Both the position numbers and the translations under genes were made by a program. This document shows positions 2,211 through 44,373 of a stretch of 64,000 nucleotides of DNA, piece by piece (the first letter of the stretch is position 1; each line of letters begins with the position of its first letter). The notes below the pieces were generated by a model. It made no database searches and was not told where the DNA came from. It saw only the letters and a program-made list of their open reading frames with translations. Source of the stretch: Eledone cirrhosa (taxonomy: Eukaryota); contig OZ024740.1 of the NCBI GenBank assembly GCA_964016885.1, positions 113,150,001 to 113,214,000 of the forward strand, read 5' to 3'.

Positions 2211-2390
2211 TATGTGTATGTGTGTGTGTATGCGTAGATGTAAGTATGAGAGTCTGAAAGGAAGCGAGTGTATGTGAAAGTTTGTTCTGAAAAGACACCG
2301 TGTGCGTGTGGAAGTGTTGTATATGTATGTATCCACACTGTCTTGAGGCTATGTTCAATAAAAGAAAGCATTGTTATTATTATTATTACT

Positions 2391-2632
2391 ACCCCGATTG
2401 TCATAGGAGCACTAGATACTACCTCAAAGAGTTTCCAAGGATGGTTAAAGAAGATTAGTCCAGCCCCGCTTTTTGGAACACTTCAAAAGTCATCCTTGCT
2501 GGGAACAGCAAGAACCCTCCGATACGTCCTGAATATCTGAGGCTGCAGGTAGCGGCTTGATATTCATTTCAACAAACTTTCCAGTTAAAAAACATCAATG
2601 ACTGAGACTCAAAAAACAATAATAATAATAAT
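2391..2632 (+). mobile_element. R4/Dong-type (RLE) non-LTR retrotransposon, 3' fragment with (AAT)n tail
   Basis: Translation PIVIGALD...LQKSSLLGTARTLRYVLNI* matches the RLE C-terminus (compare VVVGALG...IQKVVLMGTAHILRKILSI* at 15109); short 3' UTR then AATAATAAT. Confidence 0.75.
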
Positions 2633-2911
2633 GATTTCATTTATTGGCCACAAGGGCCGACATGTAGGGGACAATACAAAGACAGGGACAGTGGGGGGTT
2701 TACAATAAGGTGGAGTAAAAGTGCACAATGGCAAGACTAATTTAACAATGAAGATATAAAAATATAAAATAAACTATGCATAAATACAACAAATAAATTC
2801 CCCGATAGGGGGTGGACGACCCTGGGGTGACTCGGGTACCCCACCAATCCAGAACCACCCGGCGCTTCTAGGGCACCCAGGGAGAGCACCCCTCTCCTCA
2901 AGTTAGCTAGC

Positions 2912-5900
2912 CTATAGGCGTATGGTCAGAGTGGGCCCATTCACACGAGCCATTCTCGCACATTCATCCACCTTTTAGCAAATGTACTGGGGGGCAGCAC
3001 TTCTCTCTCCATCCTCACCTTCCTTTCCAGGTGAAACTTGAAGAAGTTGATGAGAGATTGGCCGAAGAGAAAAGTGTCTGTCATCACTCCTTTTAACCTC
3101 GTCCACCATATAACCTCTTTCGCAACTGCAACCAGACAGAGGAAAATTTCCTGCTCTTCCTGACCTAAGGGAGGCGGCGGGTCGATCTTCACTATGGACT
3201 CGGCTGATAGCCGGATTCGATTCGTTCCACACGCGACAGTAGCTGTTCGACATAACTCCACAAGTCAGTAATGCACGGACATTGGACAAGTGCGTGCAGA
3301 ACAGTTTCGTCGTTCTGTGCGCATCTTGGGCAGGTCCGCCTGACAGCACTTCCGTGCCTGTAGAGTTTATCCCGAACCGGCAATGCCCCCCGGTAGCACT
3401 GCCAAGCGAGGGATTTCTGGAAATTGTCTATCGTCCCCGGCTCGAAAGTCCTCCGGTACAGACTGGTCAGTTCGACTTCGTCGAGGCCCAAAGTTTCTCC
3501 GAGTGCGTCATCGCACTTGCCCACCACTAATCCTCTATAGAACTCGAGAGTGGAAGTTCCACTGATCGCATTGCCCGCTTGGTAGAGGGCAGTGAGCGCC
3601 TGGCAACATTCCAGGTGCCAGTCACCCAGTCTCGGTCTCTTCTTGACCCAGGACTGCAGCTCAGTCAAAGAAATGAGCTGCGGAAAAACCCGTCTGATAA
3701 ACAGCGACCACATCTGTTCACCGTTGAGGCAGAATATCTGGAGATGTCGCAGCCTCAACGCATGTCTGCGCATCATTAGCCACAGCATGCCCAGCCCTTC
3801 GTGTAGAGGGTGCTGGCAGCAGATGGACCGCCTCACCAACGGAACTTGTCCCCTCCACAAGAATTTGAAGAGGAGCCATTCCAACTTGACGAGACGCGGA
3901 CGGGGCAGGGCACGACGGTCAGGCGGTAGTAGATGACAGACGCGATGTACGCATTCGCCACCTCCGCGCGACCTTTCAGTGATAGCTTCCTCCCAGCACA
4001 TTTTTGAGTGAGACTGGCTACTCTGCTCGTTACCTCGTCCCAATTCTTTTCCACCTGGATGTCTGGTCCGAACCAAACCCCGAGCAACTTTACCGGTCCG
4101 GCCGTCCAGCGCCCCACGACGCTGTTGGACGGTATGGGCTTGCTTCTTCAGGTTCCGAGCTGCAAGCCCACCGACTTTTCCGGGTTAAATTTGGCTAGTG
4201 TCAGCCTTTCATATTCCTTCAATAAGGTGCCAACCACCTCGATTTCTGAGGTGTTCGACACCATCACGATGATGTCGTCCGCATAAGCCGACACCGCCCT
4301 TCTACGTCCCGGTTCGAGCGGGATGCCCTGCAAGAGCTCCAGCTTCCGCAGTAAAGGCTCGAGAGTCAATACGTACAGAAGGGAAGAGAGAGGGTACCCT
4401 TGACGGACCGATGAGGAGAAATGGTTCCGAGAGGTAGCCATTAGCCTTGACCACTGAGCGAGTGCCGTTGTGCATTGCAGCGATCCAGCTTCTGAAGACA
4501 GGGCCGAAGCCAGCTGCTTTGAGGACAAACTTCAGATACCGATGGTCGACCCTATCGAATGCTTTCGATTGATCTAAATTGATCAGTGCCCCACCTAAGC
4601 CAGGTTTACACCCTACCCTCTCTATGATGAATCGCATGAGGTGGAAATTGTCGTGTATGGACCTTGCTGGGATTGCGCAAGTTGTCGCCTCCCCAAACAA
4701 ATCCCCGACGACAAGCGCCAATCTCTTTGCTAACACCTTGGCCAAAATCTTAAACTCTGTGTTGAGCAGAGTTATGGGCCTGAAGTTGTCTAATGTATCC
4801 CTCTTGTTCTCGTCTTTCCTTATCAGTGTCACCACTCCCCTGCTCACAGAACTGGAAATACTCCCATTCTGGTTCCAGTTGCAGTAGAGTGCTTCGATGA
4901 GATCGGAAAACAAGTCTGGCATATTTACGTAAAGCTCGTAGGGCAGGCCATCCAAACCGAGTGACTTGCGCCTCATGCAGCCGACAAGGACGTCCTGAAT
5001 TTCGGCTGAAGTAATCGGCCTTTAGCAGCGCTCAGCGTCGACCGTCGAGATGCGCGGCAAGCCGTCAAGGTAGGGACTGAAATCCGCTACTCTCTCTGAC
5101 TCGCCACTCTCCTCGAACAACCGATAAAGTGCTGGCGAAAGGCCTCACACATCCGCTTGGAATCGTTTATCACGTGTCCGTCTCGGTTCGCCAAGGACCG
5201 AATTGTGGTTTTATTACCACGCTGCGCCTCCGCCACGCGGGCCCATCGAAGAGCTTTGGTTCCCTCGTTTCTCAGCGCACGCGCCTTAGCTCTGAAAATG
5301 CAACCTTCGTGTTTCGCATTGGAGAAATGGTCCAATACCTTTCTCGCCGCTAGCACGTCAGTTGCAATGCCACTACAAATAGCCTCGTCTAACTTATCTT
5401 TCAGCTCCCTCTCCTTTCTATTTTTCTCTAACGCTAGTACTTTGCTGAACTCTATCGAAGTTACTTTAATCTCTCTTTTGAGAGCCCCCCGCCATCTGTT
5501 GTTGATGATCCCCCCTGTCAACTTTTGCTTAACTAAATTGTTGACTCGGTCCCTGTAAGCTTTACGTGCCGGAAATGACATGTTCAGCTTCATGTAACCC
5601 GGTCCTAACCTACACGTTTTATCTAGGTCGACCGTACAGATCACAAATTTGTGATCTGAATAGGCGACCGTTTTAAAAAGTGGACAGCCTACACTATTTC
5701 TATCTATTTTCCTAATGAAGATCTTGTCTATATACAATCTAGATGATCCCATTCGGTTGGTCCATGTCCATACTGGCACATTGGGGAAATCTAGTCGATA
5801 CCTGTCAGACAGTTGGAACTGGCTGAGAGGTGCTTGAGGCTTTCGCACCCCCGACTCCTATCGGCTACTCCCACACAATCCTAGCGTGCGTCTAAGATGC

Positions 5901-6145
5901 CATTCCAGTCCCCCGCTAACAGTAAAGGCCGAGACGTACCCAGAAAGGTCTCCAGGCGCCTAAATAAGTCCGGTCGTCCGGCCCCTGTAGGGGCGTAGAC
6001 GGCCAGCAGTCTAAAGGCACCACCTTCGCTACTGCTCACATCCAAGACCACAAACTTACCGTCCGGGTCCCGGAAGATCGACCTTACCTCGAGATCTAGT
6101 CCTTTCCTAAACAACACTGCCACCACACCACCCATTCCCGGTGAG
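2912..6145 (-). pseudogene. Tx1 copy A ORF2 (EN-RT-CCHC), frameshifted, N-terminus deleted
   Basis: Pieces in ORFs 5881-6183, 5087-5848, 4302-4976, 4148-4528, 3833-4117 and 3192-4076; ends NGPTLTIRL*. Confidence 0.85.
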
Positions 6146-7535
6146 TTTTCTGTTTTTTTTTGCACTTTTGGGTTTTCCTTCATCTTCGCTGCTGGAAGAC
6201 AAATGGTCTGTGGCTGTGATTGTCTCTGTGTCTGTGTGTGCGTTTAATGTTTTGTCTATGTGTATAATTGGGGGGGGGGGTATGGGGAGTGGGAGAGCTT
6301 TCCTCGTTTTCCCCTTGGATTGGTTTTGGTGTTGGTGGTGATCCGGCTGTTTTTGATGTTGGTGTCCGTGTCTTTGTTGGTGTTGTTTTTGGTGGTGGTG
6401 GTGGTGCAGCTTTCCGTGCTGACACTGGCGTTGGCAACAAAGGAGGTTTGCGACCCACTGCATTTTTGCGCTGAGGGCAGAATGCTTGCAGATGCGTTGC
6501 TTCCCCGCAGACGAAGCAGTGTGGCCTTTTTCCGTCAGTGATTAGTTGGATTGTTGTCCCGTCCTGCAGGCGGGCAAAATCCGGGAAGTTGTTCATGTCC
6601 TCCGGTTTCATTTGGAGAAGAATCTCCAAATCCATTCCAGACCAGTCCTCTCTCTCTTTCCTTTTGATATCCAGGAGGGTAGTGTTTGTCCCCTCCTCGA
6701 TTACGCATTCCACCAGCCAACATATGTTCATTCCTGGTGGGATGCTGGGAATGCGGACCTTTACTGTCCTTTTACCCATGTAGGACGGATGCATGATAAT
6801 GCGTTCCGTTCTGCAGGGGTCACCGAGTGCTTAATAGCAAGGGCCTCGGTTTTGAACAGTACCGAGATGGTACCGAACTGTTTGCCTCTTGCTTTATACA
6901 TTATGTTACTTCCGATGTACTCCAAAGCATCGTCGACCTCTGCTTGGCTGGCAAGTTCCACTTTTCGTGTCTGCACCGAAATGCATTGAAAGTACACCGT
7001 CCTCCTTTGCATGGCCGCTGTTGCCCCGTCCGGGATGGTCAGGTTTGCCCGTTTAATTAGCCTCCACGCCTGGGCCAACTGTTCGTCTTTATCGCTAATA
7101 TCAATATCCAATAAGCGCTTTGTTTTGCTGCAGCAAATGTGGTGTTTCTGATGCTCTTGTTGGTGTTGTCATTCTAGCTGCTGTTATTTGTGTTGTTGTT
7201 TTTGTTTTGTTTGTTGTTGCTGTTGTCACCACCTCCATGTTTACATTGAAGCTGTCGGTGTTATTGTCGTTATTGCTCTGAGTTGTTGTTGTTGTTGTGG
7301 TGGTGGTGGCGGTGGTGGTGGTGGCGGCGGTGGTGGTGGTGGTGATGTCGTTTTCAGATGATACTGCTGCTAACACAGAAGATTGTGATAGTAGCTTTTT
7401 AGTTTTGCCTTCACATTCAGTAGAGTGGACGACAGGCTTGTCTATAGCAGTCGTAGTCGTGGTGAAATCTACAGTGGCTGCTTTTAAACTTTTGACATGA
7501 AAGTTCTTTACCGTTTCAAGGTAGAAAATTTCCAT
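6146..7535 (-). pseudogene. Tx1 copy A ORF1 (gag-like nucleic-acid-binding protein), disrupted
   Basis: GKRPHCFVCGEATHLQAFCP (C-x2-C-x4-H-x4-C), Thr/Asn-rich N-terminus and Pro/Thr-rich tail. Confidence 0.8.
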
Positions 7536-7734
7536 GTTTTTTTTTGGTGGGGAAGCGATTTTTTTTCGAAGTTTTTTAAAATAAATCTGAATATTCGGGC
7601 TTAAAGCCCGAATATTGAGAGGTATCCCTCTCTTGAAACCAAGATGTGTACCTTATGTTTCGTTAACGACAAGAAAATGCAAAAAGTTATACTTTAAAAC
7701 AGCTTAAAGTTACGAATCTTTTCCCCCGCAAAAT

Positions 7735-7841
7735 AACCAGTACATTACTGGTACCTTATTTTATCGATCCCGTAAGGATGAAAGGCAAAGTTAACCTCGG
7801 CGGGATTTGAACTCAGTCCCTAAAAGGACGTAACTGTGCTG
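7735..7841 (-). mobile_element. SINE family 1, partial; left arm of an inverted pair
   Basis: Reverse complement of 7858-7962 with few mismatches. Confidence 0.85.
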
Positions 7842-7842
7842 T

Positions 7843-7994
7843 GGACGCCATGCTTTGCAGAACAGTTACGTCCCTTTAGGGACTGAGTTCAAATCCCGCC
7901 GAGGTTAACTTTGCCTTTCAACTTTACGGGGTCGATAAAATATAGTACCAGTAATGTACTGGCTAATTGCTGGCCTTGTGCCAAAAGTAGAAAA
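7843..7994 (+). mobile_element. SINE family 1, 5'-truncated; right arm of the inverted pair
   Basis: B box GAGTTCAAATCC, central GCCTTTCA...GGGGTCGATAAAAT...GTACCAG, tail GGCCTTGTGCCAAAAGTAGAAA. Confidence 0.9.
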
Positions 7995-8806
7995 CATCGA
8001 CGAAAATCAACTAGCCAATCTCTTCGGAAGCACTTTCGGGCCGGGGCCTATGGACAACTTCCAGAAATCCCTGGCCTGGCAGTGCTACCGGGGAGCTTTG
8101 CCAGTTCGGGATAAACTCTACAAACATGGAGGTGCCGTCAGCCGGGCATGTCCGAGATGCGCGCATGGCGACGAAACCGTCCTGCACGCACTCGTCCAGT
8201 GTTCGAGCATTGCTGACTTGTGGGTTTATGTCGAACACCTGCTGTCACGTGTAGGACGGATCCAGCTATCAGCTGAGTCCATCGTGAGGATTGCCCCGCC
8301 CTCTTCCTTTAGCCGGGAAGGGCAGGCAGTTTTTATCTGTCTGGTGGCCATGGCGAAAGAGATAGTATGGTGGACACGTTTGAAAGGGCTGAAGACGAGC
8401 ACTTACCTCTTCGGTGATGCCCTGATTAACTTTTTCAAATTTCATTTGAAAAGGAAAATCAGGGTAGAGAGGGAAGTTCTCTCTTCCCAGCATTTTGTTG
8501 AAAGATGGGTGAGAGAAGCAAGTATGGCCCGAATGAATGGGCCTTCTCTGAGTATGTGTCTGTAAATTAAAGGTGGAAAACTGGGAGAGGGCACTTGCCC
8601 TGGTGGTCAGGGTCACTGTGGTCTTTTAATGGGCTTGCTCCACAAATGTCCCTCGGAAGTCTCCCCCCTATTGGGGAATTTTTCTTTGTTATTTTATTAC
8701 ATCCTCTGTTTTTTACACGCAGAAATGCCCATTTGTACCGTCCTGTATTGTCCTGTACTGTCCTTAATGTCTACTTTATGTAAACCTTTGTGGTTAATAA
8801 AGAAAA

Positions 8807-8807
<1 letters not shown>
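7995..8807 (+). mobile_element. 5'-truncated Tx1 copy (ORF2 C-terminus + 3' UTR), same subfamily as copy C
   Basis: Colinear and highly similar to 21852-22680; CPRC...ETVLHALVQC; ends AATAAAGAAAAC + (ATT)n. Confidence 0.92.

Positions 8808-8849
<42 letters not shown>
8808..8849. repeat. (ATT)n linker between two Tx1 copies
   Basis: Directly visible. Confidence 0.95.
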
Positions 8850-9030
8850 GAATGCCATGGTTTACGGAGGCTCGGCTCTGTAAGGTATAGTAATTTTTAA
8901 ACGCTATAACAATTGTAAATTGTTTAAAACTTGAACCAAATTGTAGATAAAACACCTTCGTCCTCGTGCGAGGGGTCTTTCTGCCCGTTATTTGGCCCTT
9001 CGGGGTGAAATAACCGCTTATTAGGGTTTT

Positions 9031-11159
9031 GTGCCTAATATTCATTTTAAACCGAAAAAAAAACATGGCTACAAAAAAAATGTTCACAAGTCACTCCCAC
9101 TCTTTCCGTCTTCTTCCTCAATCGTCATTACATCAGAGAGAAGATTGTCTCTCTCCCTCCCTTCTCTAAATGTGGTGTCGCCTCTTTCGCAAGCGACGCC
9201 AGTAAAGAAAAAGAAAAATATAGTTTCTGGTAGCTTTCACCAAGAGAACGTGCATACCGTGGAACATTTCTCCACGACGACGACAACGACGAAAAATGTG
9301 TGCGGTAAATACGGAAAGTCATTTCATACGTCTGACGTCATGAAGAATAGCAGCAGCAGCCGTAATAACAGTAGGAGCAGCAACAGTGACAAGGAAAACA
9401 CTAGTAGCAGCCGCAACAACACCAGCAGCAGCATAAACAACAACAGCAGCAGCCTCAACAGCAACAACAACAGCAGCAGCAGCAACAACAACAACAACCA
9501 CAGCAATAGCGGCGGCGGCGGTCGTAGTACCAGCAGCAACAACAAAAGTAACAGCAGCTCTGTCAACAACAACAACAACAGCAGCAAAGAAAAACCAATC
9601 TCGTCTGCAGGTATCGCAAAGAACCTGGAAATCATCCGTATAACAAATGAGGAATTACAGGAAGCGAAGTCGAAAACCGGACACCGAGCAATCTGCAAGG
9701 CAGCCGAAAAATGTTTCGAAACCCAACAGCACTGTACGGTCACGTACCGTACAGTAAGCACAAAGTCACGTAGGGTTGAAAGAGCCACAGAGTCTCCAAT
9801 ACAAAAAGCCTTAGGGTCTGTGTGGCAGCGGAAAACGCATATCACCCGAGGCAAGAAATATGCCACCGTGGACGTGCTTTTGCCACACCCCAGGAGGCAA
9901 AGGCTCAATCCTTAGTGACCATAAGGAGCGAGGAAATGGTGTTGGTGCCCTCGTACTGCGGGCAAAAAGTTGTGAGGGTTAAACTGACCCCCCCCCCCCC
10001 GGGTTGGCCCATTCTTGGCAGGCCGCGTCTGTCCTCGTCGGAATCGAGGACAAAACAACTGTACTGCAAGTACAGAAAAAAGTACGAAACGATTGGGTCG
10101 GCGCCTCGATTGAGAAGTTAATTCAGGAGTGCATTGAAGCTATCTCGAATGTGATAGTCTTCGATAACGGCACTCAACTGCCCATAAGTGTTGAGGGCAA
10201 ACGCCCGAAATGCTTTCGCTGTGGGTCGAAGACTCACCTCAGGGCCTTCTGCAATGAGAAGACCCTGAGAAATGAGAAAACCCCCCTCCTTCCGAAACCG
10301 GCTCCACTGCTACCAGCAACAGGACAGGCGGCAAGCAGGAAGGATAGGTCCGTGGCACCCATACCCACGCCACGGAAATCAAGAACAGCAACAGCAGTGG
10401 AAGTATTAACAATAACAATAATAATACCAACTACAGCTGCAACAGAGACTCCACTGCAACCATCACTAACAAGAACAAGTGAAAGAGTGCAGCTGGTACC
10501 CCTCCCCGACCTCACAGAATCGGACACGGAGTGTGAGGTGGGAGAGGGATGGCAAAACGTCGCAAGAAGGCACAAACGTAGAAGCAGCGCATCGTCGCCT
10601 TCGAAAAGGAGGAGAAGAGATGAAAAAATGGTGAAGGATACTGCAAAGAGACTGACAGCAGCAACACTACCAACACCATCACTACCCACACTAGCACTAC
10701 CATCACCACCGGCCACAACCCCACCGCCAACAACAACAACACCTTCAACACCACCACCACAAGCACCAACATCGCAAACACAACAACAAAACACACAGAC
10801 ACAGCACCAACGACAAGAAAATAGGAGAACCACAACCCCACCCCCAGAAAAAGAAATGCACAACAATAAATACACACAACAAGAAACTAATGACTTACAT
10901 AATTGAACACACAGACATTTCACAGCACGACTACATAATACTAGCACCAATCAAAACACCAACGAACATAAGACTGGTAAGAATATCACAGAAACAATAC
11001 ACAAACATTAAAATGAAATTCCCCGACGCAGTTGGTGATTTCAGAGACCTAGGAGGGACACTCAACCGGAGAGTATACTCGGATAAACTCACAGACGAGC
11101 CGACGACCAGCCGAAGGGACGATACAACGGTCCCTTCACCAGACGATCAAGGTAAGTGA
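9031..11159 (+). pseudogene. Tx1 copy B ORF1, frameshifted
   Basis: ORFs 9031-9915, 9822-10121, 10004-10906 and 10890-11159; homologous motifs to ORF1 of copies A and C (TVxYRT...SRRVERA; PSYCGQ; CCHC). Confidence 0.8.
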
Positions 11160-11191
11160 TACTTTCTCACTTGCCCCGTTCCTCACCCAAC

Positions 11192-14100
11192 ATGGCTGTA
11201 TTCAGGATCGGAAGTGTAAACGTGCGTGGCTTGAGATCGGATTGGAAACAGGGTCACTTGCTTAACGACCTCAGATCACTAAACATAGATGTGGTGGCCA
11301 TCAACGAGACCAGAATCTCCGAAACGCAAGCTTTCGCACCGATCTTCGACGGTTACGAGGTGTACGCATCTCCGTGCCGTCCTGGAGCGGGGGGCGCAGT
11401 GGTTGTGTTGGTCTGGAAAGGCTTGGGTCTCGCCATACGGACCATCTTCCAGGACCCAGAAGGTAAGTCGGTGTGCTGGACGTAAGCGGCACAGAAGGCA
11501 ATGCTTTCAGGCTAGTAGCCCTCTATGCCCCGACATGGGCAGGACGGCCAGATTTCTTCAGACGTCTAGAGACCTTTCTTGGAACGTCCCGCTCTTTAGT
11601 GTTAGTGGGCGACTGGAATTGTATCTTGGATGCATGCTGGGATTGTGTGGGGCCAGTGGGTAGGGGAGGAATGTGCAAGAGCCTCACCAACCTGCTCAGA
11701 CGCTTTGAACTGTCTGACAGGTATCGACTGGATCACCCGGATGTGCCAATGTGGACATGGACAAACCGCATCGGGTCATCCAGATCGTATCTCGATAGGG
11801 TATTCTGCAGAGAACTAGATAAGGGTAGCATAAGTTGTCGACAATTTAAAATAGTCGACAGACTTCATAGACAAGGGCCCGGTTACTAGCAGCTGAATGC
11901 GTCTTTCCCAGCGCGCAAAGCCTAGAGAAACCGGATTAGCGGATTAGTTAAGCGGGCGTTGACGGGAGCGGTCGTCAACAACAGGTGGTGGTTCGTCCTG
12001 AAAAGGGCAATTAAAGTAGAGTTGATTAGGTTTAGCAAAGGAGTAGTGATAGAGAAAAAATAGAGTAGAGGGAGAGCTAGTCAGAAAGCTAGAAGAGGCG
12101 TTTAGGACAGGCATCGCAACCGACATGTTTGCGGCGAGATTGGCACTCGATCAATTCTTCAACGCAAGACACGAAGGCTGCGTTGTCAGAGCTAGAACGC
12201 GTGCTCTGAAATACGAGGGGACAAAAGCCGTCCAATGAGCCCCGGTGGCAGAGGCGCGAAGTGGCAACAAAGCCACAATTCAGTCTTTGTCTGACCAAAA
12301 CGGGTGCGTGATGCTCGAATCCGAGCGGATGTGTGAAGCCTTTCAGCAACACTTTGCTGAACTGTTCGGGAGCAGCGGCGGAACGGATTGGGGAATGGAC
12401 TTCAGTGCATACCTCGACGGACTGCCTCGGCTCTCGACGACCGCAGTACAGTGTTGCAAAAAAACCAATAACAGCCGGTGAAATATGGGAAGCGATGGCT
12501 ACCTGCACGAGGGGTAAATCGCCAGGTTTGGATGGTCTGCCCTACGAGCTTTATGCATTTATGCCAGACTTGTTCGGTAACCTCTTGGCAGACGTCTACT
12601 GCAACTGGCAGCAGAACGGGAGCATTCCCAGTTTTGTGAGCCGGGGAGCGGTGGCGCTGCTGAGAAAAGACCCGAACAAGGGGATGCTATCGATAATTTC
12701 AGGCCCATAAATCTGCTAAACGCAGTGTTCAAGATTTTGGCCAAGGTGTTAGCAACGAGGTAGGCGCTTGTCGTCAAGGGTCTGGTGGGAAAGGCGCAGA
12801 CATGCGCCATTCCGGACAGATCCATACACGACAACCTCCACCTCATGCGATATATCATAGAGAGGGTGGTTAAGGAACCTGGCACGGGTGGAGCCCTGAT
12901 CAACTTGCATCAATCCAAAGCATTCGATAGGGTCGCTCATCGGTACCTGGCAGCGGTCATCGAGGCAGCCAGTTTCGGGCCCGTTTTCAGTGGATGGATC
13001 ACAGCGCTGTACAGCGACATCTGCTCAGTTGTGAGGGTGAACGGTCACCTGTCGCAGCCGTTCAGAATCATGCGCTCAGTTCGCTAGGGTTGTACCCTCT
13101 CGTCCCTCTTGTACGTATTGGCTCTCGAGCCGTTACTGCACAAACTGGGGGCGATGAGGGGCGTCCCACGCGAACTAGGATGCGGGAGATCCGAGTCGGC
13201 TTGCACCGACGACGTTACCGTTGTGGTGTCGAGCACCAGACACGTCCAGATTCTCGGCACCGTTCTCAAGGAATACGAAGCTGTGACAGGAGCAAAGATA
13301 AACCAGGAAAAGTCAGTGGGCTTGCAGCTCGGCAACTAGAGAGGCAAGTTCATGCCGTCCGACAGCGTCGTGGGGCCTTGGACGGATGGACCGCTTAAAT
13401 TGCTCGGGGTCTGGTTCGGACCGGATGGAGAAAAATGGAACGATGTGGCAAGGTGGCCTCCCTCACCCAGAAATGAGCCGAGAGGAAGCTGTCACCGAAA
13501 GGACAGGCCGAGGTGGCGAATGCGTACATCGAATCCGTCATCTGCTACCGCCTCACCGTCGTCCGTTGCTCCGGCCCAACTCTCACCAAAATGGAGCGCC
13601 TCCTCTTCCGCTTTTTGCGGAAGGGACGCGCTCCCATGGTCAGACGATCCATTTGCTGTCAACACCCGTTGCGTGGAAGACTGGGCATGCCATGGCTGAT
13701 GATCCGCAAACATGCACTGAGGCTGCGACATCTCTGGTACTTCCTTGACGGTGAACAGGTGTGGTCGCCGTTCGCCAGGCACGTTTTCCCACAGCTCGTC
13801 TCCTTGACGGGGCTGCAGTCCTGGCTCAGAAAAAGACCGAGGGATAGCGCTTGGAAACTGGAATGTCTCCAGGCGCTCACTGCCCTCTGCCAGCTGGGCA
13901 TCAGTATCGGGAGAACATCCACCTCGGCACATCCACCTCGGCGTTCTATAGAGAACTAGTGGAGGGGAAGAGCGACGACGTTCTCGGAGAGATACTGGGC
14001 GTCGAAGAAGATCAACTATTTGTTCTCTTCCGGAGAACTTTCAGCCCAGGTCTATGGATAACGTCCAAAAATCCCTGGCCTGGCAGTGCTACCGGGGAGC

Positions 14101-14565
14101 GCTGCCGGTTCGAGATAAGCTCTACAGGCATAGAAGTGCCGTCAGCCGAGCCTGTCCGAGATGCGCGCAGAGCGACGAAACCGTCGTGCACACACTCGTT
14201 CAGTGCCCGAGCATTGCTGACTTGTGGAGCCATGTCGAACAGTTGCTGTCGCGTGTAGAACTGATCTGGTTATCGACTGAGTCCATTGTGCAGATGGTCT
14301 CGCGGTCTTCCTTCGAGGAGGAAGGGCAGGCGATTTTCATCTGATGGCCATGGCGAAATAGATTGTGTGGTGGACAAGATTGAAAGGGTTAAAGACAGAC
14401 ACTTTCCTCTTCGGCGAATCCCTAATTAACTTTTTCAAGTTTCACTTGAAGAGGAAAATCAGGGTGGAGAGGCAAGTGCTGGCTTCTAGCAAGTTTGTTG
14501 AAAGGTGGGTGAATGTAGCGAGAATGGTCCGAGTGAGCGGGACCGCTCTGAATATACGTCTGTAG
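11192..14565 (+). pseudogene. Tx1 copy B ORF2 (EN-RT-CCHC) with multiple stops and frameshifts
   Basis: NVRGL, AINET, VGDWNC, KSPGLDGLPYE, HQSKAFDRVAH, ACTDD (YADD equivalent), CPRC...ETVVHTLVQC. Confidence 0.88.
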
Positions 14566-14878
14566 TTTGAGAAATGGAAAAATTGAGAGAGGGCGCTTGC
14601 CCTGGTGGTCAGGGTGGCCGTGGTGTTTTGTGTGGTTTTCGCCACGAGTAACCCTCGGAGGTTCTCCCCCCTATTGTGGGATTTTTTCATTGTTTCAATT
14701 TTCATTTTTATTGTTTATATATATATATTTCTATGTCCTTTTTTTCTTTTCTTACATAATAAAAATATTTACACGCACAAAACCCACATCGTACCGTCCT
14801 GTGCCATCTGTAATGTTTTTCTTGATGTCACCCCTTGTGGCCAATAAAGAAATCATCATTATTATTATTATTATTATT

Positions 14879-14948
14879 CTTTGAGTCTCAGTCATTGATG
14901 TTAGTTAACTGGAAAGTTTGTTGAAATGAATATCAAGCCACTACCTGA
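14879..14948 (-). mobile_element. R4/Dong-type 3' UTR stub
   Basis: Reverse complement of 2546-2613 with about 4 differences; (ATT)n on both sides. Confidence 0.8.
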
Positions 14949-14962
14949 TTATTATTATTATT

Positions 14963-17126
14963 ACAGCTGCATTTATCTTGCTTTATATTTATACGAGTTA
15001 TCACCAAATCACAACCAGTGACCTCAAGAGACAACAAGGTTCGCCATGTTCAAGAAAGAACATATATACACACACATGCATCTTTAGGTGTTTAGACTTG
15101 TGATGTACTTATATTGACAGAATCTTCCTTAGTATATGGGCAGTTCCCATTAGTACTACCTTTTGTATTTCTCCTATACGCGGGTTTCCTGGGATTTGCG
15201 ATAAGTAATCATTAGACCCCTTAGGTATCATTCCTAGAGCGCCTACAACCACTTGTATTGTTTTAGTTCTCAATTTCCACAATTTTCCAATTTCTATCTC
15301 CAGGTCCTTATACTTACTCAATTTTTCAAATGTTTTTATAGATACATTCTTGCCTATTGGAACGGACATATCATTTAGCAGGCATACCCTCTTTTTAAAG
15401 TCCTTCAATATTATATCAGGTCTATTTGCATCTATTTTTCGGTCTGTTTGGATGCTAAAGTTCCACAAGATTGAGATGTGATCTTTTTCAAGTATGGGAG
15501 GTGGTTGATGCTCCCACCAATTCTTTTGATGGGGCAGGTCAAAATGCTTACACATTATCCAATGTATGTATTGTGCAGCTCTGTTATGCCTGTTCAGGTA
15601 TTCGGTTGGGGCTATAGGACTGCACATTGAAATTATATGTTCAATGGTCTCTGGTTGTTTTTTTCATACACGGCATAATGGGCTGCATCCATTTTTTATT
15701 ATGTTGGCTTGGTAATTTTTTGTTGGCAGACACTGATCTTGTGCTGATATAATCAGGCCTTCAGTCTCCGATTTCAGTCCAGAGGATGCCAACCACTGAT
15801 GGGTTAAAGTTTTGTCAACATCAGGATTGTAAGCTCGTTCTGGGTATTTTCCATACAGAGGCTTTTCTTGCCATTTCTTAGCCAGTTTCTGTAGCAGTTC
15901 TTTCTTTGCAGTTACTTTTACCTGCTTTGCTTTTTCTGTGTTTTCCATTTCAGCAGTAAATGGGACTTCTGAAATTTGTAGTCCATTACTGTATCTTTGT
16001 GCATCTTTTGTAATGGAGTATGATCTTTTGATGCTTTCGTGTTTCAAAACGAGTTTGATCATCCAATCATGTGATTCCCTTAGATATGCCAATTGTTGCA
16101 GTTTTCAACGCAATGTCTAACTGGATTAACCCACGTCCTCCTTCTTTCCTAGGGAGATATATTCTATCTGTATCTGCCTTAGGGTGATGCATTCTGTGCA
16201 TGGTTTGGAATTTTCGAATTTTTGTATCGAGCCTACGGATCTCTGTGCTTGACCAGTTGATGACATTGTAACTATAGGTTACTACTGGTATGGCAAGCGT
16301 GTTTATGGCATCGATCCTATTCCTTGCATTCAATTCCGTTCTTAAGATTGCTCTTACTCTGCGGTAACATTCCTTCCTTATCCTTTCCCTGATTGTCGAG
16401 TGCTTGATTCCGTCTCCTTCACAAACAATATTTGTAAGTTTCCTCTTGATCAAGTTCTCTTATCACATTCCCACGATCAAGATTAATGTCTGAACTTTTC
16501 AGCAGCTTTCCTCTGGTGAACGTTGCTTTGGCGCATTTATCTAGTCCAAACTACATTTTAATGTCATCACTGAACTGCTCCACAGTGGATAATAGCCCTG
16601 CAATTGTTCATAATGTTTTGCAAATAGTTTCAGGTCATCCATGTAGAACAAGTGATTAATGGTTTTGTCATAGACTTTATATTCATGTTTTGTTTCATTG
16701 AGCATTTTACTTAATGGTATAAGTGCGAAGCAGAATAAAAGCGGTGATAAAGAGTCACCCTGAAAAATTCCACAATTAATATTAACTTCTCCAGCTTCCA
16801 GTGATTTTGTTTCACTATTCAAAAGGAGTGTCGTTTTCCATGTCTTCATACTGAATGACAAAAACCTCCTGACAACGGGAGATATTTTGAAAATCTCTAA
16901 ACATTTTTCAATCCAACTGTGAGGCAAACTATCGAATGCTTTTATATAATCTATCCAAGCAATTGATAGATTTTTGTGTCTATTATGACAATCTTCTAGT
17001 ATCATTTTGTTAACCAAAAGCTGATCCTTACAGCCATATGAGCCTCGTTTACACCCTTTCTGCTCAAAGGGAAATAGGTCATTTGTTATCAGGTGGTCAT
17101 ATGTATATTCAGTTAGGACTGATGTT
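14963..17126 (-). mobile_element. R4/Dong-type RLE LINE, 5'-truncated (RT + CCHC + restriction-like endonuclease)
   Basis: AWIDYIKAFDSLPH, GIFQGDSLSPLLF, HLFYMDDLKLF, LYLPRKEGGRGL-like motif, YLNRHN, RPDIILKD...DMSVP, KLSKYKDL; (AAT)n tail on the sense strand and (ATT)n at both ends. Confidence 0.92.
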
Positions 17127-17151
17127 TATTATTATTATTATTATTATTATT
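17127..17151. repeat. (ATT)n linker between the Dong-type and Tx1 elements
   Basis: Directly visible. Confidence 0.95.
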
Positions 17152-17366
17152 GGCGACCTACGTAGTAATTCGTATTATCGTGAGCTCCGCAAAGGTCTGT
17201 TATTTTCAGTTGTTTAAAATTGCCATTTATGGAAAATGTTTATGTTAACTGTAGATAAGTGCACATACATTGTTATCTGAAAAGGACACTCAAAAAGATT
17301 GGGGCCTTAAGCCCAAAATTTAAACTTTTATAATTATCAAACAAACAATTTTTCTTTGAAAAAATC

Positions 17367-19290
17367 ATGGACGACGCAGAGTCAAACCTTTCTCTCAAAC
17401 TAACACCTCACACCGACACCACCATTGTAAATATTACTACGTTTGCCAACACTAAAAATATAAGCAGTAGCAATATTTTAAATTTGTCTCAGGCAGACAT
17501 TCATTTCCCGCCATTACCAATGAGTGCAGATGTTGAAGCCGCCACCCCACCACCACCACAACGACAACAGAAACAAAAGTAAAAAATAAATTATCTCGTG
17601 ATATCGAAATGAATTCACCCAAAATGAACTTTTCCACACCGAACACCGCTGACGCCACCACCACCACAACTGAAACTAAAATTAATAACAAAAATAACGA
17701 TAACAACAACAGCAACAATGAAATTAAGAAAACCACACTGTCTTTTGCCAGAGTAGCAGAAAAGTGCGAAGCATTCCAGGTAACTCAGGAGGAATTAGAA
17801 GAAGCCAAAAGAATGGTAAAGAAAGATGGGTACAGGATCAGCCCCCCCACACACACACCTAATAAAATGGAGCATCGGCGCCTATGCACCGTGCCTTATC
17901 GGACGATTCACATAAAATCGCGCCGAGTGGAACGGGCATCCGAGACCCAAATCCAAAAAGCTTTCGGACATGTGTGCGCAAAAAAACCCACATCAGACGT
18001 GGGCAGAAATATGGAACCGTGGACGTGTTCTTTGAAACACCACAGGAGGCCAGAGAATACTCCATGGCCCCATTAAGAAGTGACGACTTCACACTCGTCC
18101 CAAGCTATTGTGGCCAGAGACACGTGAAGATCAGGGTGACCCACGTTCCACCGGCCATCGAAATTCCATGGCTAATGGCTGCCGTCCTCACCGGCATCGA
18201 GGCCAACACCAAGATAATCGAAATAGCGAAAGAAAAGCAGGAGAACTGGTCCGGATCTGGGATGGAGCTCCTGATCCAAGCGGACCAAAAAAGCATTGAG
18301 GAGATCCCAACGGTAATAGACCTCACTGACGGCAGCCACCTCACCGCAATCGTCGAGGGCAGAAGGCCTAGGTGTGCCGTTTGTGGTGAAGGAACCCACC
18401 TAAGGGCTTTCTGCTCTCACAGCTAAAAGGTTGAGGCCACCTCCCTTACCCACCCCAGTGACTAAACCGTCAACACTACCAGCAGCAGAAATGGCAGCAA
18501 CAACTGTAGCAGCAACAACAGAAGCAAATGTAACACAACAACCCCAGCAACAGTAGCAAAACCACCACCACCACCACCCAACGCGCCAGAACTAGCACCA
18601 GCGCCTACACCATCCACCACGCCACAACCAAAACAACGCCTCTGGAGGATTTTCCACTCCCCGACCTATGGCAACTGGGGACAGATTGTGACGACGAGGA
18701 GTGGGAAACGGTATCAGGTAAAAAGAAAAAAAGAAAAGGAAACCAAAAAAGAAAAAAAATCCCCTTCCTTCCCCCTCCAAAAACAAAATACAGAGGGAAA
18801 CAAATAAACTATCAAACAAAAAAGATAGGACAGATATGCCACGACCCACACCAGCATCGCCAACCCCATCACCACAAACACCAACACCATCACCATCATT
18901 AACCCCAACACCACCATCACCAACACCACAAAAGTCACCAAAAAGCGAAACAAACAAACCCACAACAAACGCAAACAATACAAAACAACCAAAACGATAC
19001 ACACTACACAACATTAAATTTGAACAACAACCAATTATTACACTAGATCCAACACAACACCAGCATCACAGAAAAAGACTACGTAACAACCCAAAAGTTC
19101 ACACCACCTCCGCACATACAAATCACTCGCATCACACAGAAAACGTACACGACACTAAAACAAAAATTCCCCAAAGACATCGGAGACTTCCGACAAGCAC
19201 TCTCCAGGAGGATTTATAAGGACATCCTTCCGGAGGGGGCCACAAGCAGTGAAAAGGATGGAGAAACCATCCTTCCTCTACGAGAAGTAA
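17367..19290 (+). pseudogene. Tx1 copy C ORF1, disrupted
   Basis: ORFs 17367-17582, 17609-18076, 17884-18426 and 18836-19219. Confidence 0.78.
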
Positions 19291-19328
19291 GGTAAGTATG
19301 TTTCCCATCTTTTCCACTCCATTTCAAC

Positions 19329-22300
19329 ATGACCTCACTCAGAATAGGCAGCATAAATGCGCGTGGCTTGGGGACGACATGGAAGCAGAGCCACCTACTC
19401 AATGACCTCAGGTCACTAAACATAGATGTAGTGGCCATCAGCGAGACCAGAATCTCCGAAGCACAGGCCTTCGCATCGATGTTCGGCGGCTACGATGTGT
19501 ACGCATCTCCCAGCCGTCCTTGATCGGGGGGAGGAGTTGCTGTGCTTTTTCGAAGAGGTTTGGATCTCGCCATACAGGCCATCTTCCTGGACCCAGAAGG
19601 TAAGTTGGTGGTGCTGGACGTGACCAACGGAGACGGGCAAGATTTCAGGCTAGTGGCCGTCTATGCCCCGACAGAAGCAGGGCGGCCTGATTTCTTCCGG
19701 CGTCTGGAGACCTTTCTTGGAACGTCCCGCACTTTAGTGTTAGTGGGCGACTGGAACGGGATCTTAGATGCACGCTTGGACTGTGTGGGATCAGCGGATA
19801 GGGGAGGAGGGTGCAAGAGCCTCACCAACCTGCTCAGGCGTTTTAAACTGTCTGACATGTACCGATTGGATTTCCCGAATGTGCCAATGTGGACTTGGAC
19901 AAATCGCATAGGGTCATCCAGATCATATCTAGATAGAGTATTTTGTAGGGAAATAGATAGGTCTAGCATAGGCTGTCCACATTTCAAGATAGTCTGCTAC
20001 ACGGACCACAAATTCGTGATCTGTGTGTTTGACTTAGATAAGCTTCATAGACGAGGACCCGGCTACTGGAAGCTAAACGCGTCCTTACCAGCGCACAAGG
20101 CCTACAGAGACCGGATTAGCTAACTAGTTAAGCGGGCGTTGACGGGTGCCATCGTCAACAAGTGGTGGCTTGCTCTGAAAAGAGCGATTAGAATAGAGTC
20201 CATTAGGTTTAGTAAGGCTTTAGCAATAGAGAAAAATAGAGCAGGGGGAGAACTAGTTAGAAAATTAGACGAGGCGCTTAGCAAAGGTATCACGACCGAC
20301 GTACTTGCGGCGAAATTGGCCCTTGACCAATTCTTCAATGCAAAGCACGAAGGCTGCGTTGTCAGAGCTAGGGTGCATGCTCTCAGACACGAGGGCAGGA
20401 AAGCCGTTCAATAGGCCGGAGTGGCGGAGGAGCGTCATGGCAACAAATCCACGATCCGGTCTTTGGTGGACCACGACGGGCGCATGCTACTCGATCCCGA
20501 GCAAATGTGTAAATCTTTTCAGCGACACTTCGCACAGCTGTTCGGGGGCAGCGGCGGGCCGGGTCGAGGTATGGACTTTAGTGTCTACCTCGACGGACTG
20601 CCGCGGCTCTCGGCCACTGAGGCGGATTTTTGCGAAAAGTTGGTAACAGCCGCTTAAGTACGGGAGGCAATGACTGGTTGCACAAGGGGTAAATCGCCTG
20701 GTTTGGATGGTCTGCCCTATGAATTTTACCTACATATGCCATACTTCTTCGGCGGCTTCTTGGCGGACGTCTACTGCAACTGGCAACAGAACGGGAGAAT
20801 TCCCAGCTCTGTGAGCCGAGGAGCTGTGGAGCTGCTGAGAAAAGATCCGAACAAGGGGGATAACATAGATAATTTCAGGCCCATAACTCTGCTAAACACA
20901 GAGTTCAAGATTTTGGCCAAGGTGCTAGCAAAGAGGTTGGCGCTTGTCGTTGGTCGTCTGGTGGGAGAGGCGCAGACATGCGCCATTCCCGACAGATCCA
21001 TCCACGACAACATCCACCTCATGCGATACATCGTAGAAAGGGTAGCTAGGGAACCTGGAACGGGTGGGTCCTTGATCAATTTAGATCAGTCGAAAGCTTT
21101 CGATTTTGTCGACCATCGTTACTTAGCGGCAGTCATGAAGGCGGCCGGCTTTGGGCCCGTCTTCAGAGGCTGGATCGCTGCCATGCACAGCGACATCTGC
21201 TCTGTGGTGAAAGTGAACAGTCACCTTTCAGAACGGTTCAACATCATGCGCTGGGTCCGCCAAGGATGTCCTCTCTCGTCCCTCTTATACGTATTGACTC
21301 TCGAGCCATTACTGGACCGGTTAAATTGCTAGAGGTCTGGTTCGGTCCGGAACTCCAGACGGACAAAAACTGGGATGAGGTGACGAGCAGGGTGGCTTCT
21401 CTCATTTACTACCGCCTGGCCGTTGTATGTTGTGATAAGCCCCGCCTGACTGCGCTGGAGCGTTTGCTCTTTCGCTTTTTGTGGAAGGGACGCGTTCCGA
21501 TGGTCAGACGGTCCATCTGCTGTCAACACCCGCTACGTGGAGGGCTGGGCATGCCGTGGCTGATGATGCGCAGACACGCGCTCAGGCTACGACATCTCCA
21601 CCTCTTCCTCGACGTTGATCAGGTGTGGTCGCCGTTTGCTAGACGCGTCTTTCCCCAGCTCGTCTCCTTGACAGAGCTGCAGTCCTGGGTCAAGCGAAGA
21701 CCGAGAGGGAGCGCTTGGAGACTGGAATGTCTTCAGGCGCTCACAGCCCTCGACCAATCGGGCAATGTGATCGTTGGAGACTCAACCTTGGCGTTCTATA
21801 GAGGATTAGTGGAGGGGAAGAGCGACGACGTACTTGGAGAAACTCTATGCGTCGACGAAAATCAACTAGCCAATCTCTTCGGAAGAACTTTCGGGCCGGA
21901 GCCTATGGACAACTTCCAGAAATCCCTGGCCTGGCAGTGCTACCGAGGAGATTTGTCAGTTCGGGAAAACTCTACAGGCATGGAGGTGCCGTCAGCCGGG
22001 CATGTCCGAGATGAGCACAGGGCGACGAAACCGTCCTGCACGCACTTGTCCTGTGTCTGAGCATTGCTGACCAGTGGGTTTATGTCGAACACCCGCTGTC
22101 ACGTGTAGGACGGACCCAGCTATCAGCTGAGTCCATCGTGAGGATTGCCCCGCCCTCTTCTTTTAGCCGGGAAGGGCAGGAAGTTTTTATCTGTCTGGTG
22201 GCCATGGCGAAAGAGATAGTATGGTGTACACGTTTGAAAGGGCTGAAGACAAGTACTTACCTCTACGGTGATGCTCTGATTAACCTTTTCAAATTTCATT

Positions 22301-22419
22301 TGAAAAGGAAAATCAGGGTAGAGAGGGAAGTTCTCTCTTTCCAGCATTTTGTTGAAAGATGGGTGAGAGAAGCAAGTATGGGCCGAGTGAATGGGCCTAC
22401 TCTGAGTATGTGTTTGTAA
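19329..22419 (+). pseudogene. Tx1 copy C ORF2, disrupted
   Basis: EN 19329-20123, RT 20670-21310, C-terminal 21266-22419; YADD segment missing. Confidence 0.87.
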
Positions 22420-22696
22420 ATTAAAGGCGGAAAACTGGGAGAGAGCACTTGCCCTAGTGGTCAGGGTCACTGTGGCCTTTTAATTGGCTTTCTCCACAAA
22501 CGTCCCTCGGAAGTCTCCCCCCCCCCCCCTATTGGGGAATTTTTCATTGTTTGTTTTTGTTACATCCACTGTTTATGTTTTTTTACACGCAGAAATGCCC
22601 ATTTGTACCGTCCTGTATTGTCCCGTACTGTTGTCCTTAATATCTACTTTATGTAAACCCTTGTGGTTAATAAAGAAAGCATTATTATTCTCCTTC

Positions 22697-22880
22697 GGCG
22701 GTGGATTGGCAGTATCGGTAGAGGGTCGGACGCCATGCTTTCCAGCATAGGTACGTCCCTTTACGATCTGAGTTCAAATCCCGCCGAGGTTGACTTTGCC
22801 TTTCATCCTTACGGGGTCGATAAAATAAAGTACCAGTAATGCACTGGGTAATTGCTGGCCTTGTGCCTAAAGTAGAAACA
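22697..22880 (+). mobile_element. Full-length tRNA-derived SINE (family 1, Meta-domain-like core) with 16-bp TSD
   Basis: A box TGGCAGTATCGG, B box GAGTTCAAATCC, core GCCTTTCATCCTTACGGGGTCGATAAAATAAAGTACC; TSD ATTATTATTCTCCTTC at 22681-22696 and 22881-22896. Confidence 0.92.
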
Positions 22881-22908
22881 ATTATTATTCTCCTTCTTCT
22901 TCTTATTA

Positions 22909-38973: not shown

Positions 38974-39043
<70 letters not shown>

Positions 39044-39055
39044 ATATCTATCTAT
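38974..39055. repeat. (ATCT)n upstream of Tx1 copy D
   Basis: Directly visible. Confidence 0.95.
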
Positions 39056-39285
39056 TGTTTTACTTGAGACGTGTGCCAGCTCGCTGGTAAGTTTTTGTTG
39101 ATTTTCTAAGTAAGAAATCAAAAATTTATTGTTAAATTTATTACTATTTTATAGCTTGACCCCACGTCTGGACTTTCAGACGGGTGTGGGTCAAGTCATC
39201 TTCACCCCTCCCTGGGGTGAAATTTTCGTTTTGGAAAAAACATTTCGCCGGTGAAAAAAAGTGTAAACAAACCTTGCATTCAGTC

Positions 39286-41170
39286 ATGAACGCTGCGTTC
39301 ATAACTAGAAGTGGTGGAGAGGCGGTAAGAATGTTAAGCTCGCAGTCACCTCCCCTAACCACCTCATTGAAAGACACCGAAAATGTCGTCAGTTTTGAAA
39401 ACACGATGTCGGACGTTGATTGTAACATCAACACTAACACAAACACCAATAACATGCAAAATATAAACAACACCAACCAGAACAACAACAACAACAACAA
39501 CATCAATGACAACAAGAACAACAACAGCAACAATGATAACAACAACACCACCAACAACAACAGCAACACGAACAACTCCACGAACAAGGAAAAGATTTCC
39601 TTTGCTCAAACCGTCCAAAAGACGGAACTGTTCACATACCTTGACATTTCCAATGCTAGGGAAATGTTAAGCGATGCAAAACAGTACGTAATTTTTGGTG
39701 AGAGTGGTGCTTTCAGCGTCACTTCTCAACAGTTACGCAAAGAAACTGTTCTAAAAACAGTAATTTTTAGGACGGTTTCAAATGTGTCGAAAAAACCAGT
39801 TCAATTATCCCAAAACGATATTGAACTGGTTCTGAAGAATTCAATGAAGGATATTGCCTTCATCCAAAAAGGGAAACGTTTGGGAAGCATTTCGGTGTTG
39901 TTGAAAGACTAATTGACAGCACAAAAATATTCTGTATCGCCGATTGTGTCCCCCCTTTACACCTTTTTTCCCACATATATGGGAAAAAGAACATAAAAAA
40001 ATAAAAATTTAGAACATTGCACCAAATGTAAACGTCTGGTGGATTCTAACTGGCTTCATCGATTTCGACGAAGACACCATCATTTCGGTGGGAAAGTCTT
40101 CCAGAGGCACATTCAATGGTACAAGCATAGAAGTTCTGGTCCAAATGAGGCCAGAACGGATAGCTAAAATACCCCAACGTGTGCCTCTGGATGGAATTTC
40201 ACACATAAACATTTCTGTTGAGGGTAGGCGGCCTTCATGTTACCACTGTTTAAGCAGTAGTCACCTGAAGGCTTACTGTCCTCGGTTAACTACAAAAAAA
40301 AGAGGCACTACTGCCAACACCCAAAACAATAACACAACCACTACCACGACGACCACCACCACAACAACAACAACACGCAAACACAACCAAAACAAGAACA
40401 ACAAACCAACCTGCAAGCACAGTCCCACCCAGCCCCACTCCACCTAAAACTACTATAAAACACCAACAAACACAACAGCTCACCAAAACATACACCTTCC
40501 AAATAACACAGACACCACAACGGACGAGGCCCCCACATCATCACCAAGTGACGATGGGGGAGAGCCTCTCCGTTCGAAAAGAAAGAAGAAAAGACACCAC
40601 AAGAACAAAAAAACAACAAATATCACTACAAACATACAACCACCAACACAAACAACACAAACATTACAAACAAAAACCCCCCGTCCCGAAAACAAAATCA
40701 CGACATCACTCCAAACACAAACACCTACAACAAAACGAAAGCTCCCACAAGAACAACAGACAAAAACCACCGCAACACAACAAGAACATTACACATGCAT
40801 AAACAGTAAAAAAACCTTTAATCGAGGTCATCTCCAACGACCCTTCGGTGAAAACCGAAGGGAACATTTTTTCGAACTGTGTAGACAAACCTAATTTAAA
40901 GATGATTAGGGTCACTACGGACACCTATAAGTCTTTAAAGGAAAACTTTCCTAAGGACGTGGGTAATCCTTGTGTTAAACCCATTAACCGCGTCCTTTAA
41001 AAACGTTTCCCCACCCTCACCCCAGACACCCCGACCCCACCAAACATCTCCGTCCCTACCCAACCGGAAACAACCACCCACCCAGACAACCCCTCTAACA
41101 CCCCCATGGAAACCGTGCGGCCTGATCCCCGGGAGACGAAGAGGTGAGTCTTTTCATCTACTCTTCTTTT
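39286..41170 (+). pseudogene. Tx1 copy D ORF1, disrupted
   Basis: Asn-rich N-terminus, KISFAQ, GKRLGSISV, CCHC knuckle near 40235, AC-rich tail; start codon uncertain. Confidence 0.72.
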
Positions 41171-41187
41171 AACTTTTCAGAACCAAC

Positions 41188-44100: not shown

Positions 44101-44373
44101 AAGCTCTACAGACATGGGCGCCCGGGCAAGGACGCTGCAAAAAAGTTCTGTCTGAGGTGCGTGCGAGACGAAGAAACCGTCGCGCACGCATTAATACACT
44201 GTCCGCGCGTCACCGACCTGTGGGGCTATGTAGAACGACTATTGTCGCGGGTGGGACCAATCCGGTTGACCACCGAGTCCATTGTCATGATCAAACTGCC
44301 ACCCTCCTTCAAAAACGAATGAGAGGCGGTTTTCCTTTGTGCGATAGATATGGCGAAAGAGGTTGTATGGTGG
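41188..44373 (+). pseudogene. Tx1 copy D ORF2, disrupted and interrupted near its C-terminus by (ATCT)n
   Basis: EN/RT/Zn motifs across ORFs 41188-44322; homology stops at ...KEVVWW. Confidence 0.86.

Follow-up and report, generated by a model that had tools for sequence, protein, structure and literature searches.

The 64,000-nucleotide window studied here (C1:113,150,001-113,214,000 of the 3.0-Gb genome of the octopod Eledone cirrhosa) contains a block at positions 2391-22896 in which long interspersed nuclear elements (LINEs) of two unrelated clades, Tx1-like and R4/Dong, are joined by short (ATT)n arrays, and it raises the question of whether these arrays are the target of the elements or only their tails. 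The placement of the elements indicates that they are probably the target: Tx1-like LINEs, Dong-type LINEs and a short interspersed nuclear element (SINE) appear to have piled into (ATT)n, with ATT as the sense strand of the Tx1-like elements and the SINE and AAT as that of Dong. The layout of the window was derived from self-comparison, Pfam searches and mapping to natural full-length copies. All six (ATT)n or (AAT)n tracts that an earlier note on this DNA had listed are present, with their borders moved by 1-2 bases. As that note had read them, the sense strands end in ATT for the four Tx1-like pieces and in AAT for the three R4/Dong pieces, and Tx1 and Dong lie antiparallel at 3/3 direct contacts in the block.

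The proposal of a single (ATT)n-specific Tx1 family was rejected, as the ATT-targeting elements fall into three families (A, C' and D) by their second open reading frame (ORF2), with only 74-81% DNA identity, and carry four swapped 5' modules. The modules, comprising the 5' untranslated region (UTR) and ORF1, were exchanged among the ATT lineages near the ORF1/ORF2 border. Module C is found mostly on ORF2 D, and on ORF2 C' in the window copy 8850-14857 and at 3/29 other C' loci. Most C' copies carry the fourth module, which is preceded by ATT wherever its end is visible. The combination of module C with ORF2 C' (window 8850-14857; L273, L278 and L298) is a recombinant subfamily that itself spread.

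The 5' ends were examined in genome searches that used the initial ~300 bp of each element as the query, repeats being excluded from it. For each search the best 40 candidates were scored and 30 loci were returned, one of which was the window; the counts refer to the other 29. Full-length Tx1-like 5' ends adjoined (ATT)n in 85/87 cases (D, 29/29; C, 29/29; A, 27/29) and AAT in none. The sequence upstream of the tracts differed from locus to locus, and the junctions were in fixed phase with the repeat. Truncated copies, defined as those found via the 3' end and broken within 1.5 kb, were counted for D, A and Dong family 2 only. The target repeat was present at the break in 8/17 D and 17/21 A copies (25/38 for Tx1 together) and, as AAT, in 8/14 Dong2 copies, while the opposite-strand repeat was seen in one case among the 52. 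The corresponding background, a 12-base stretch with at least 10/12 ATT match no more than 6 bases from 4000 random points in window 23001-64000, was 0.75%. Since the repeats stand at many different internal truncation points, they are not element-encoded. These counts uphold the (ATT)n-specific insertion of Tx1 suggested at the outset; the random 5' flanks or random orientation that the earlier note had named as grounds against it were not what we found (85/87 ends at ATT; 44/44 Dong-Tx1 pairs antiparallel). As full-length Tx1 copies have nothing but repeat on either side, their target-site duplications are not definable by visual inspection; plausible duplications of 10-14 bp were seen in only a few truncated Tx1 copies.

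Strand polarity was scored on 574 distinct tracts from the fetched genome loci. At tracts, 5' ends read ATT for Tx1 (96/98) and the SINE (82/82), and AAT for Dong (78/79). Across a tract, Dong and Tx1 were antiparallel in all 44 pairs, as were Dong and the SINE in 35/35, whereas neighbours of one kind were parallel (Tx1-Tx1, 28/28; Dong-Dong, 20/20), and so were 31/33 SINE-Tx1 pairs. The two unrelated LINE clades thus lie in one repeat in fixed opposite polarity, as had been supposed from the window. The two antiparallel SINE-Tx1 pairs are due to compound ATT/AAT tracts with a polarity switch (L116, L209, L202 and L035). Beyond the 5' tract, another Tx1, Dong or SINE piece was present in 53/87 full-length ATT-lineage copies, which supports the idea of self-feeding chains; mixed chains are therefore the rule here, and the window block, though long, has many counterparts. 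Antisense RNA from antiparallel neighbours, which the earlier note had supposed, would be limited by the AATAAA that directly precedes the tail at Tx1 ends and hinders read-through, and the window copies are fossils.

A sister lineage, E, lies in the same window. Its ORF2 is ~71-73% identical to those of the other Tx1-like families, and its 5' ends adjoin ATCT in 23/29 cases genome-wide and ATT in none, with a few ends adjoining (TC)n. Upstream of these ends another E tail was found in 9/29 cases and an ATT-lineage element in 0/29. On (ATCT)n, E repeats the behaviour of the ATT lineages, and its chain partners are other E copies only. Under a published rule by which a Tx1 family is target-specific if one target type makes up >20% of its flanks (PMC4494074; this and the other papers are cited for the accessible parts of their text), both the ATT lineages (85/87) and E (23/29) are target-specific. 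The endonucleases of E and the ATT lineages are 56-65% identical, and E differs at 37/173 positions common to the three ATT lineages, two loops included. The segment aligned to the betaB6-betaB5 hairpin loop of human L1 reads R[I/M]GSS in the ATT lineages and RSGTS in E; grafting of this loop alters the nicking preference of the L1 endonuclease (PMC1950540). The endonuclease-region tree sets the ATT lineages apart from E (93/94). The one-clade test on this tree gave p 0.059, with the unlabelled protein P0001 outside the group, and is hence little informative. In a sister clade of unnamed proteins (P0005, P0006, P0023, P0026, P0051 and others) the hairpin loops are very variable and often longer, hinting at further targets.

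The SINE was recognized by its 184-bp size, many copies and target-site duplications; no tRNA match was obtained with ARAGORN or Rfam. D, C', A, E and the SINE have in common a hairpin with the loop C[T/C]TGT, located ~12-16 bases ahead of the tail. Its stems are AACC/GGTT in D, GCC/GGC in C', GGCC/GGCC in A, GCC/GGC in E and GGC/GCC in the SINE, and the changes are compensatory. In the 8-row alignment 92% of cells pair; shuffles reached 70% and no slid control exceeded 63%. The hairpin was absent from all 96 Dong ends (59 Dong1 and 37 Dong2). The target-site duplications of the SINE are ~8-19 bp long and mostly start with ATTA, so a short motif may suffice for its insertion. The SINE is likely a passenger of Tx1 with looser targeting. 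Elsewhere in the window, at 34466-35063, three SINE copies stand in tandem, joined via their tails.

On the Dong side, two families were distinguished (Dong1 and Dong2, ~37% protein identity). R4/Dong elements are characterized by a single ORF with a reverse transcriptase (RT), a C-terminal CCHC and restriction-like motifs. The Dong2 copy L460:2105-5752 (-) has an unbroken ORF of 1216 amino acids in which RVT_1 was the sole Pfam match, with no apurinic endonuclease, and in which CCHC, RHD and PD motifs were located by eye at the C-terminus. The Dong RT of the window matched R2 structures only, and the homologue search with Dong returned no named R4/Dong element. The (TAA)n target was on the Dong sense strand at 57/58 3' ends and at 78/79 5' ends at tracts. 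Dong2 copies are 97-98% alike, which suggests recent activity. Dong1 and Dong2 are two ordinary new members of Dong.

Within the window (Table 1), the 20-kb chain on (ATT)n that had been described is real, but it is not one uninterrupted chain. Three junctions (7730/7731, 7841/7843 and 7993/7997) have no tract, and the left 5.4 kb (2391-7841) is in reversed polarity. The 5' side of the Dong stub at 2391 reads ATT, not AAT as usual for Dong. If 2391-7841 were turned round, all Tx1 and SINE pieces would lie on the plus strand and all Dong pieces on the minus strand, and a later inversion of this left part is for that reason rather likely. Four public sequencing runs compared with the inverted junction (7500-8200) matched only in short repeat pieces. 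The block further contains three SINE pieces absent from the earlier note. All long pieces carry stops or frameshifts.

Table 1. Repeat tracts and retrotransposon pieces of the window, in order of position (RT, reverse transcriptase; APE, apurinic-type endonuclease; aa, amino acid identity).
Feature	Position	Strand	Remarks
(TTA)5 tract	2374..2388	.	ATT polarity on +; left edge of block; polarity opposite to usual for adjoining Dong stub
R4/Dong family 1 3' stub (last ~45 codons + 3' UTR)	2391..2617	+	97% to genome copy; 41% aa to Dong2 ORF C-terminus
(AAT)5	2618..2632	.	common tail-to-tail tract of Dong1 (+) and Tx1 A (-)
Tx1-like family A	2633..7730	-	CCHC knuckle, APE part, RT, zf-RVT; broken frames; lacks first 32 bp and ~810 bp spanning ORF1 end/ORF2 start
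SINE piece, positions 47-157 of 184-bp unit	7731..7841	-	left arm of head-to-head pair
SINE piece, positions 32-182 of 184-bp unit	7843..7993	+	right arm of pair; probable right edge of inverted segment 2391-7841
Tx1-like piece, 5'-truncated (family D ORF2/3' end)	7997..8807	+	zf-RVT
(ATT)14	8808..8849	.	tail of truncated D piece and 5' flank of next Tx1-like element
Full-length Tx1-like chimera	8850..14857	+	5' module C joined to ORF2 family C'; broken frames
(ATT)7	14858..14878	.	common tail-to-tail tract of Tx1 (+) and Dong1 (-)
R4/Dong family 1 3' stub, 69 bp	14879..14947	-	96% to genome copy
(ATT)5	14948..14963	.	separates two parallel Dong pieces
R4/Dong family 2, 5'-truncated (RT to C-terminus)	14964..17125	-	RVT_1; 96% to full-length copy L460
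(ATT)8	17126..17151	.	common head-to-head tract of Dong2 (-) and Tx1 D (+)
Full-length Tx1-like family D	17152..22680	+	internal deletion of ~0.3-0.4 kb after RT core; broken frames
(ATT)3 tail of D	22681..22696 (tract 22681-22689)	+	doubles as 16-bp target-site duplication of the SINE, left copy
Full SINE, 184 bp	22697..22880	+	with Tx1-like 3' hairpin
Right copy of 16-bp duplication	22881..22896	+	runs into compound (CTT)/(ATT)/(AGT) microsatellite
(ATCT)20	38974..39055	.	5' flank of lineage E
Tx1-like lineage E, ATCT-targeting	39056..44563	+	~290 bp of 3' part missing, with (ATCT)n in their place (44376-44431)
(TATC)13	44564..44614	.	tail of E
64-bp 3' stub of E, then (ATCT)14	63165..63284	+	

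The elements are placed strand-fixed in the repeat at both ends, internal truncation points included, with a fresh tract on each side. Drawing on target-primed reverse transcription in general, we suggest that the AAT strand is likely the one nicked by the Tx1 endonuclease and that the (AUU)n tail of the Tx1 RNA likely pairs with the nicked end and primes copying. Full-length RNAs would carry a few upstream repeat units, the annealing of which to the target would yield the in-phase 5' junctions. Dong insertion would be the mirror image with a different nuclease, the apurinic-type endonuclease of Tx1 and the restriction-like endonuclease of Dong having presumably reached the same repeat independently and cutting opposite strands. 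Every insert would leave new tracts for the next one, by which the chains would grow, and the SINE may borrow the Tx1 machinery via the common 3' hairpin.

Several points weigh against this account. The specificity is read solely from where sequences sit at filled sites, and since tail and target always change together, such data cannot separate the choice made by the endonuclease from pairing of the RNA tail. Antiparallel pairs that meet tail to tail are forced by the tails alone, so that only the 5' junctions are informative, and scoring of the best 40 candidates per search favours well-kept copies. The repeat is missing at the break in 13/38 truncated Tx1 and 6/14 truncated Dong2 copies; several of these repeat-less breaks are internal deletions or adjoin the tail of a neighbour, and some are unexplained. 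The SINE was in a tract in only 8/29 other copies (Fisher p = 0.003 versus truncated Tx1), the common hairpin has only 3-4 pairs, and folding was no better than in shuffles for 4/5 of the ends that carry it. Specificity was not transferred modularly by loop grafts (PMC1950540). In the RT tree, unlike the endonuclease tree, E groups with A (95 in the Shimodaira-Hasegawa-like approximate likelihood-ratio test); ATT as the ancestral target was dropped because of this disagreement.

Some of these points would suit an account in which RNA-DNA pairing mainly sets the target, a loose endonuclease nicking short YATTA-like motifs and insertion following only at nicks that allow the leader and the (AUU)n or (AUCU)n tail to pair, so that a change of the tail alone would switch the target. 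We regard this as improbable, though it deserves consideration. The fixed phase of full-length 5' junctions is what annealing would give, yet Tx1 copies that lost the leader by truncation lie in tracts as well (25/38). In favour of the account, most SINE duplications away from long tracts have ATTA at their start; against it, E differs at the 37/173 otherwise common endonuclease positions, two loops included. Nicking in vitro is looser than integration in vivo, but the Tx1L endonuclease nicks almost only its own target (PMC1950540).

Much less survives of the view that there is no targeting, the repeats being element-encoded ends or random inserts preferentially surviving in harmless microsatellites. 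The genome is rich in microsatellites, and passive accumulation was proposed for Waldo-A/B (PMC3812793). Repeats at many internal truncation points are not encodable by an element, however, survival would neither fix strand polarity nor sort sister lineages into ATT and ATCT, and the far commoner (AT)n and (CT)n runs are unused; this view is largely refuted and very improbable. That the block is a misassembly or a tandem or inverted duplication of a few old units, as the palindromic SINE pair (7731-7993) and two similar Tx1-ATT-Dong1 junctions might suggest, is barely credible, because the A and C copies at those junctions are 71% alike and each 87-94% alike to its own family elsewhere, the SINE arms are 88% alike and hence different copies, and the same junction types recur on many chromosomes.

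Targeted insertion into (ATT)n thus being the preferred reading, we turn to the affiliation of the Tx1-like elements. Exo_endo_phos, RVT_1 and zf-RVT were detected by Pfam in window pieces and genome copies, and the endonuclease aligns to that of L1. A separate ORF1 with a CCHC knuckle is a feature of the Tx1 clade; one CX2CX4HX4C knuckle was present in each of A, C, D and E, with a weak zf-CCHC match (E 0.004) in one copy. P0001, 77% identical to the window RT, matched L1 ORF2p with E 1e-50 and R2 with E 1e-24, its RT being closer to L1, and among named relatives those of Argonauta (70%) and a cuttlefish (50%) are nearest to the window RT. The RT tree is a quick tree of 81 of 143 rows, with no named Tx1L, Keno, Kibi or Koshi reference and a backbone without support. 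Membership of the Tx1 clade is likely, judging by architecture, L1-likeness and snRNA-flanked relatives. Distant metagenome relatives lie beside U1, U2 or U5 small nuclear RNA (snRNA) genes (L334, L335, L336, L342, L346 and L348), and L336 starts right after the 5' part of U2, in a Keno-like manner. The metagenome scan covered 80 loci with 23-41% identity, none of which had a clear ATT or ATCT tail after AATAAA. In the RT tree, L351, with a (TC)-rich flank, forms a separate clade together with hagfish and turtle proteins, whose link to the octopod clade is without support.

Other parts of the window also contain repeats. The stretch 2040-2372 ends in AATAAA and ATT, resembling a Tx1 tail, and had no match among the other loci compared. 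A CTGATGA...GAAA motif at 1930-1975 (-) is reminiscent of a Penelope-type hammerhead; it had no Rfam hit, and Rfam gave nothing above curated thresholds on window 1-24000. Local duplications were noted at 58507-59366, 45078-46061, 47334-48285 and 29337-29888, including a near-perfect 860-bp inverted repeat (94%) and a direct repeat of 353 bp (99%) that also has short copies in inverted orientation.

These elements bear on the question of how retrotransposon endonucleases of the apurinic type come to recognize new sequences, on which grafts between distant enzymes gave unpredictable results (PMC1950540). The ATT and ATCT enzymes are a natural pair, with several ATT lineages as controls, which makes target choice directly testable. 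The targeting also suggests why transposons cluster and why ATT and ATCT microsatellites are so numerous in octopod genomes, and it points to the LINE that is likely the partner of a very abundant SINE. Octopod ATT- and ATCT-based markers should be treated with caution, as they are often at element ends. A bolder synthesis, which we put forward only tentatively, is that an undescribed octopod radiation of Tx1 switched between (ATT)n and (ATCT)n via a few changes in two endonuclease loops, drives the SINE via a tiny 3' hairpin and, together with opposite-strand Dong, makes and refills much of the ATT/AAT stock. The resulting mixed arrays would extend themselves, and silencing RNA against both clades could arise from their antiparallel layout.

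Among known systems, TRAS and SART are two groups of site-specific LINEs that occupy silkworm telomeric repeats in opposite orientations and form arrays. Both belong to the R1 clade, with the same endonuclease type, and are telomeric, whereas two endonuclease types meet here in interstitial microsatellites. Microsatellite-specific Tx1 elements and TAA-specific Dong are already known. No ATT- or ATCT-specific Tx1 family was found in the accessible literature, including PMC4758252, PMC8869645, PMC10294476, PMC5786205 and PMC3747384, a scope that leaves out subscription papers, Repbase and the supplements of PMC4494074. Octopus annotations count 51 Dong-R4 and 80 L1-Tx1 families (PMC13282606), the word 'target' being absent from the main text of that paper as far as accessible, and the accessible parts of PMC13282606 and PMC8967140 give such counts without target analysis. 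Microsatellite targets of the Tx1 clade comprise (TC)n for Kibi and (TTC)n for Koshi of fishes and (TTCC)n/(TTTC)n for crocodilian families (PMC4494074, PMC3812793). Like these, the octopod elements are two-ORF LINEs with an apurinic endonuclease that use one microsatellite in one orientation, with a repeat unit that differs between sister families; unlike Kibi and Koshi, they target (ATT)n and (ATCT)n, neither of which is named as a target in those papers, live in a mollusc and share a target with an unrelated clade. Dong is TAA-specific in silkworm, mosquito and the snail Biomphalaria (PMC3812793), and the families described here show no essential difference, as they too have (TAA)n on both sides and a single ORF in which the RT is accompanied by CCHC and restriction-like motifs at the C-terminus. 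As in LINE/SINE pairs with a common 3' stem-loop (PMC3747384) and in SINEU/Tx1-Mar (PMC4494074), SINE and LINE have the same target motif and a 3' hairpin in which changes are compensatory, but the hairpin is limited to 3-4 pairs here and the SINE targets more loosely than its LINE. Convergence of a Tx1-clade element and one with a restriction-like endonuclease on a single target is also seen for Keno and Utopia, both in U2 snRNA genes (PMC4640811); those two insert at one identical site of a low-copy gene and have the 3' flank in common, whereas Tx1-like and Dong elements occupy opposite strands of a repeat that is regenerated with each insertion.

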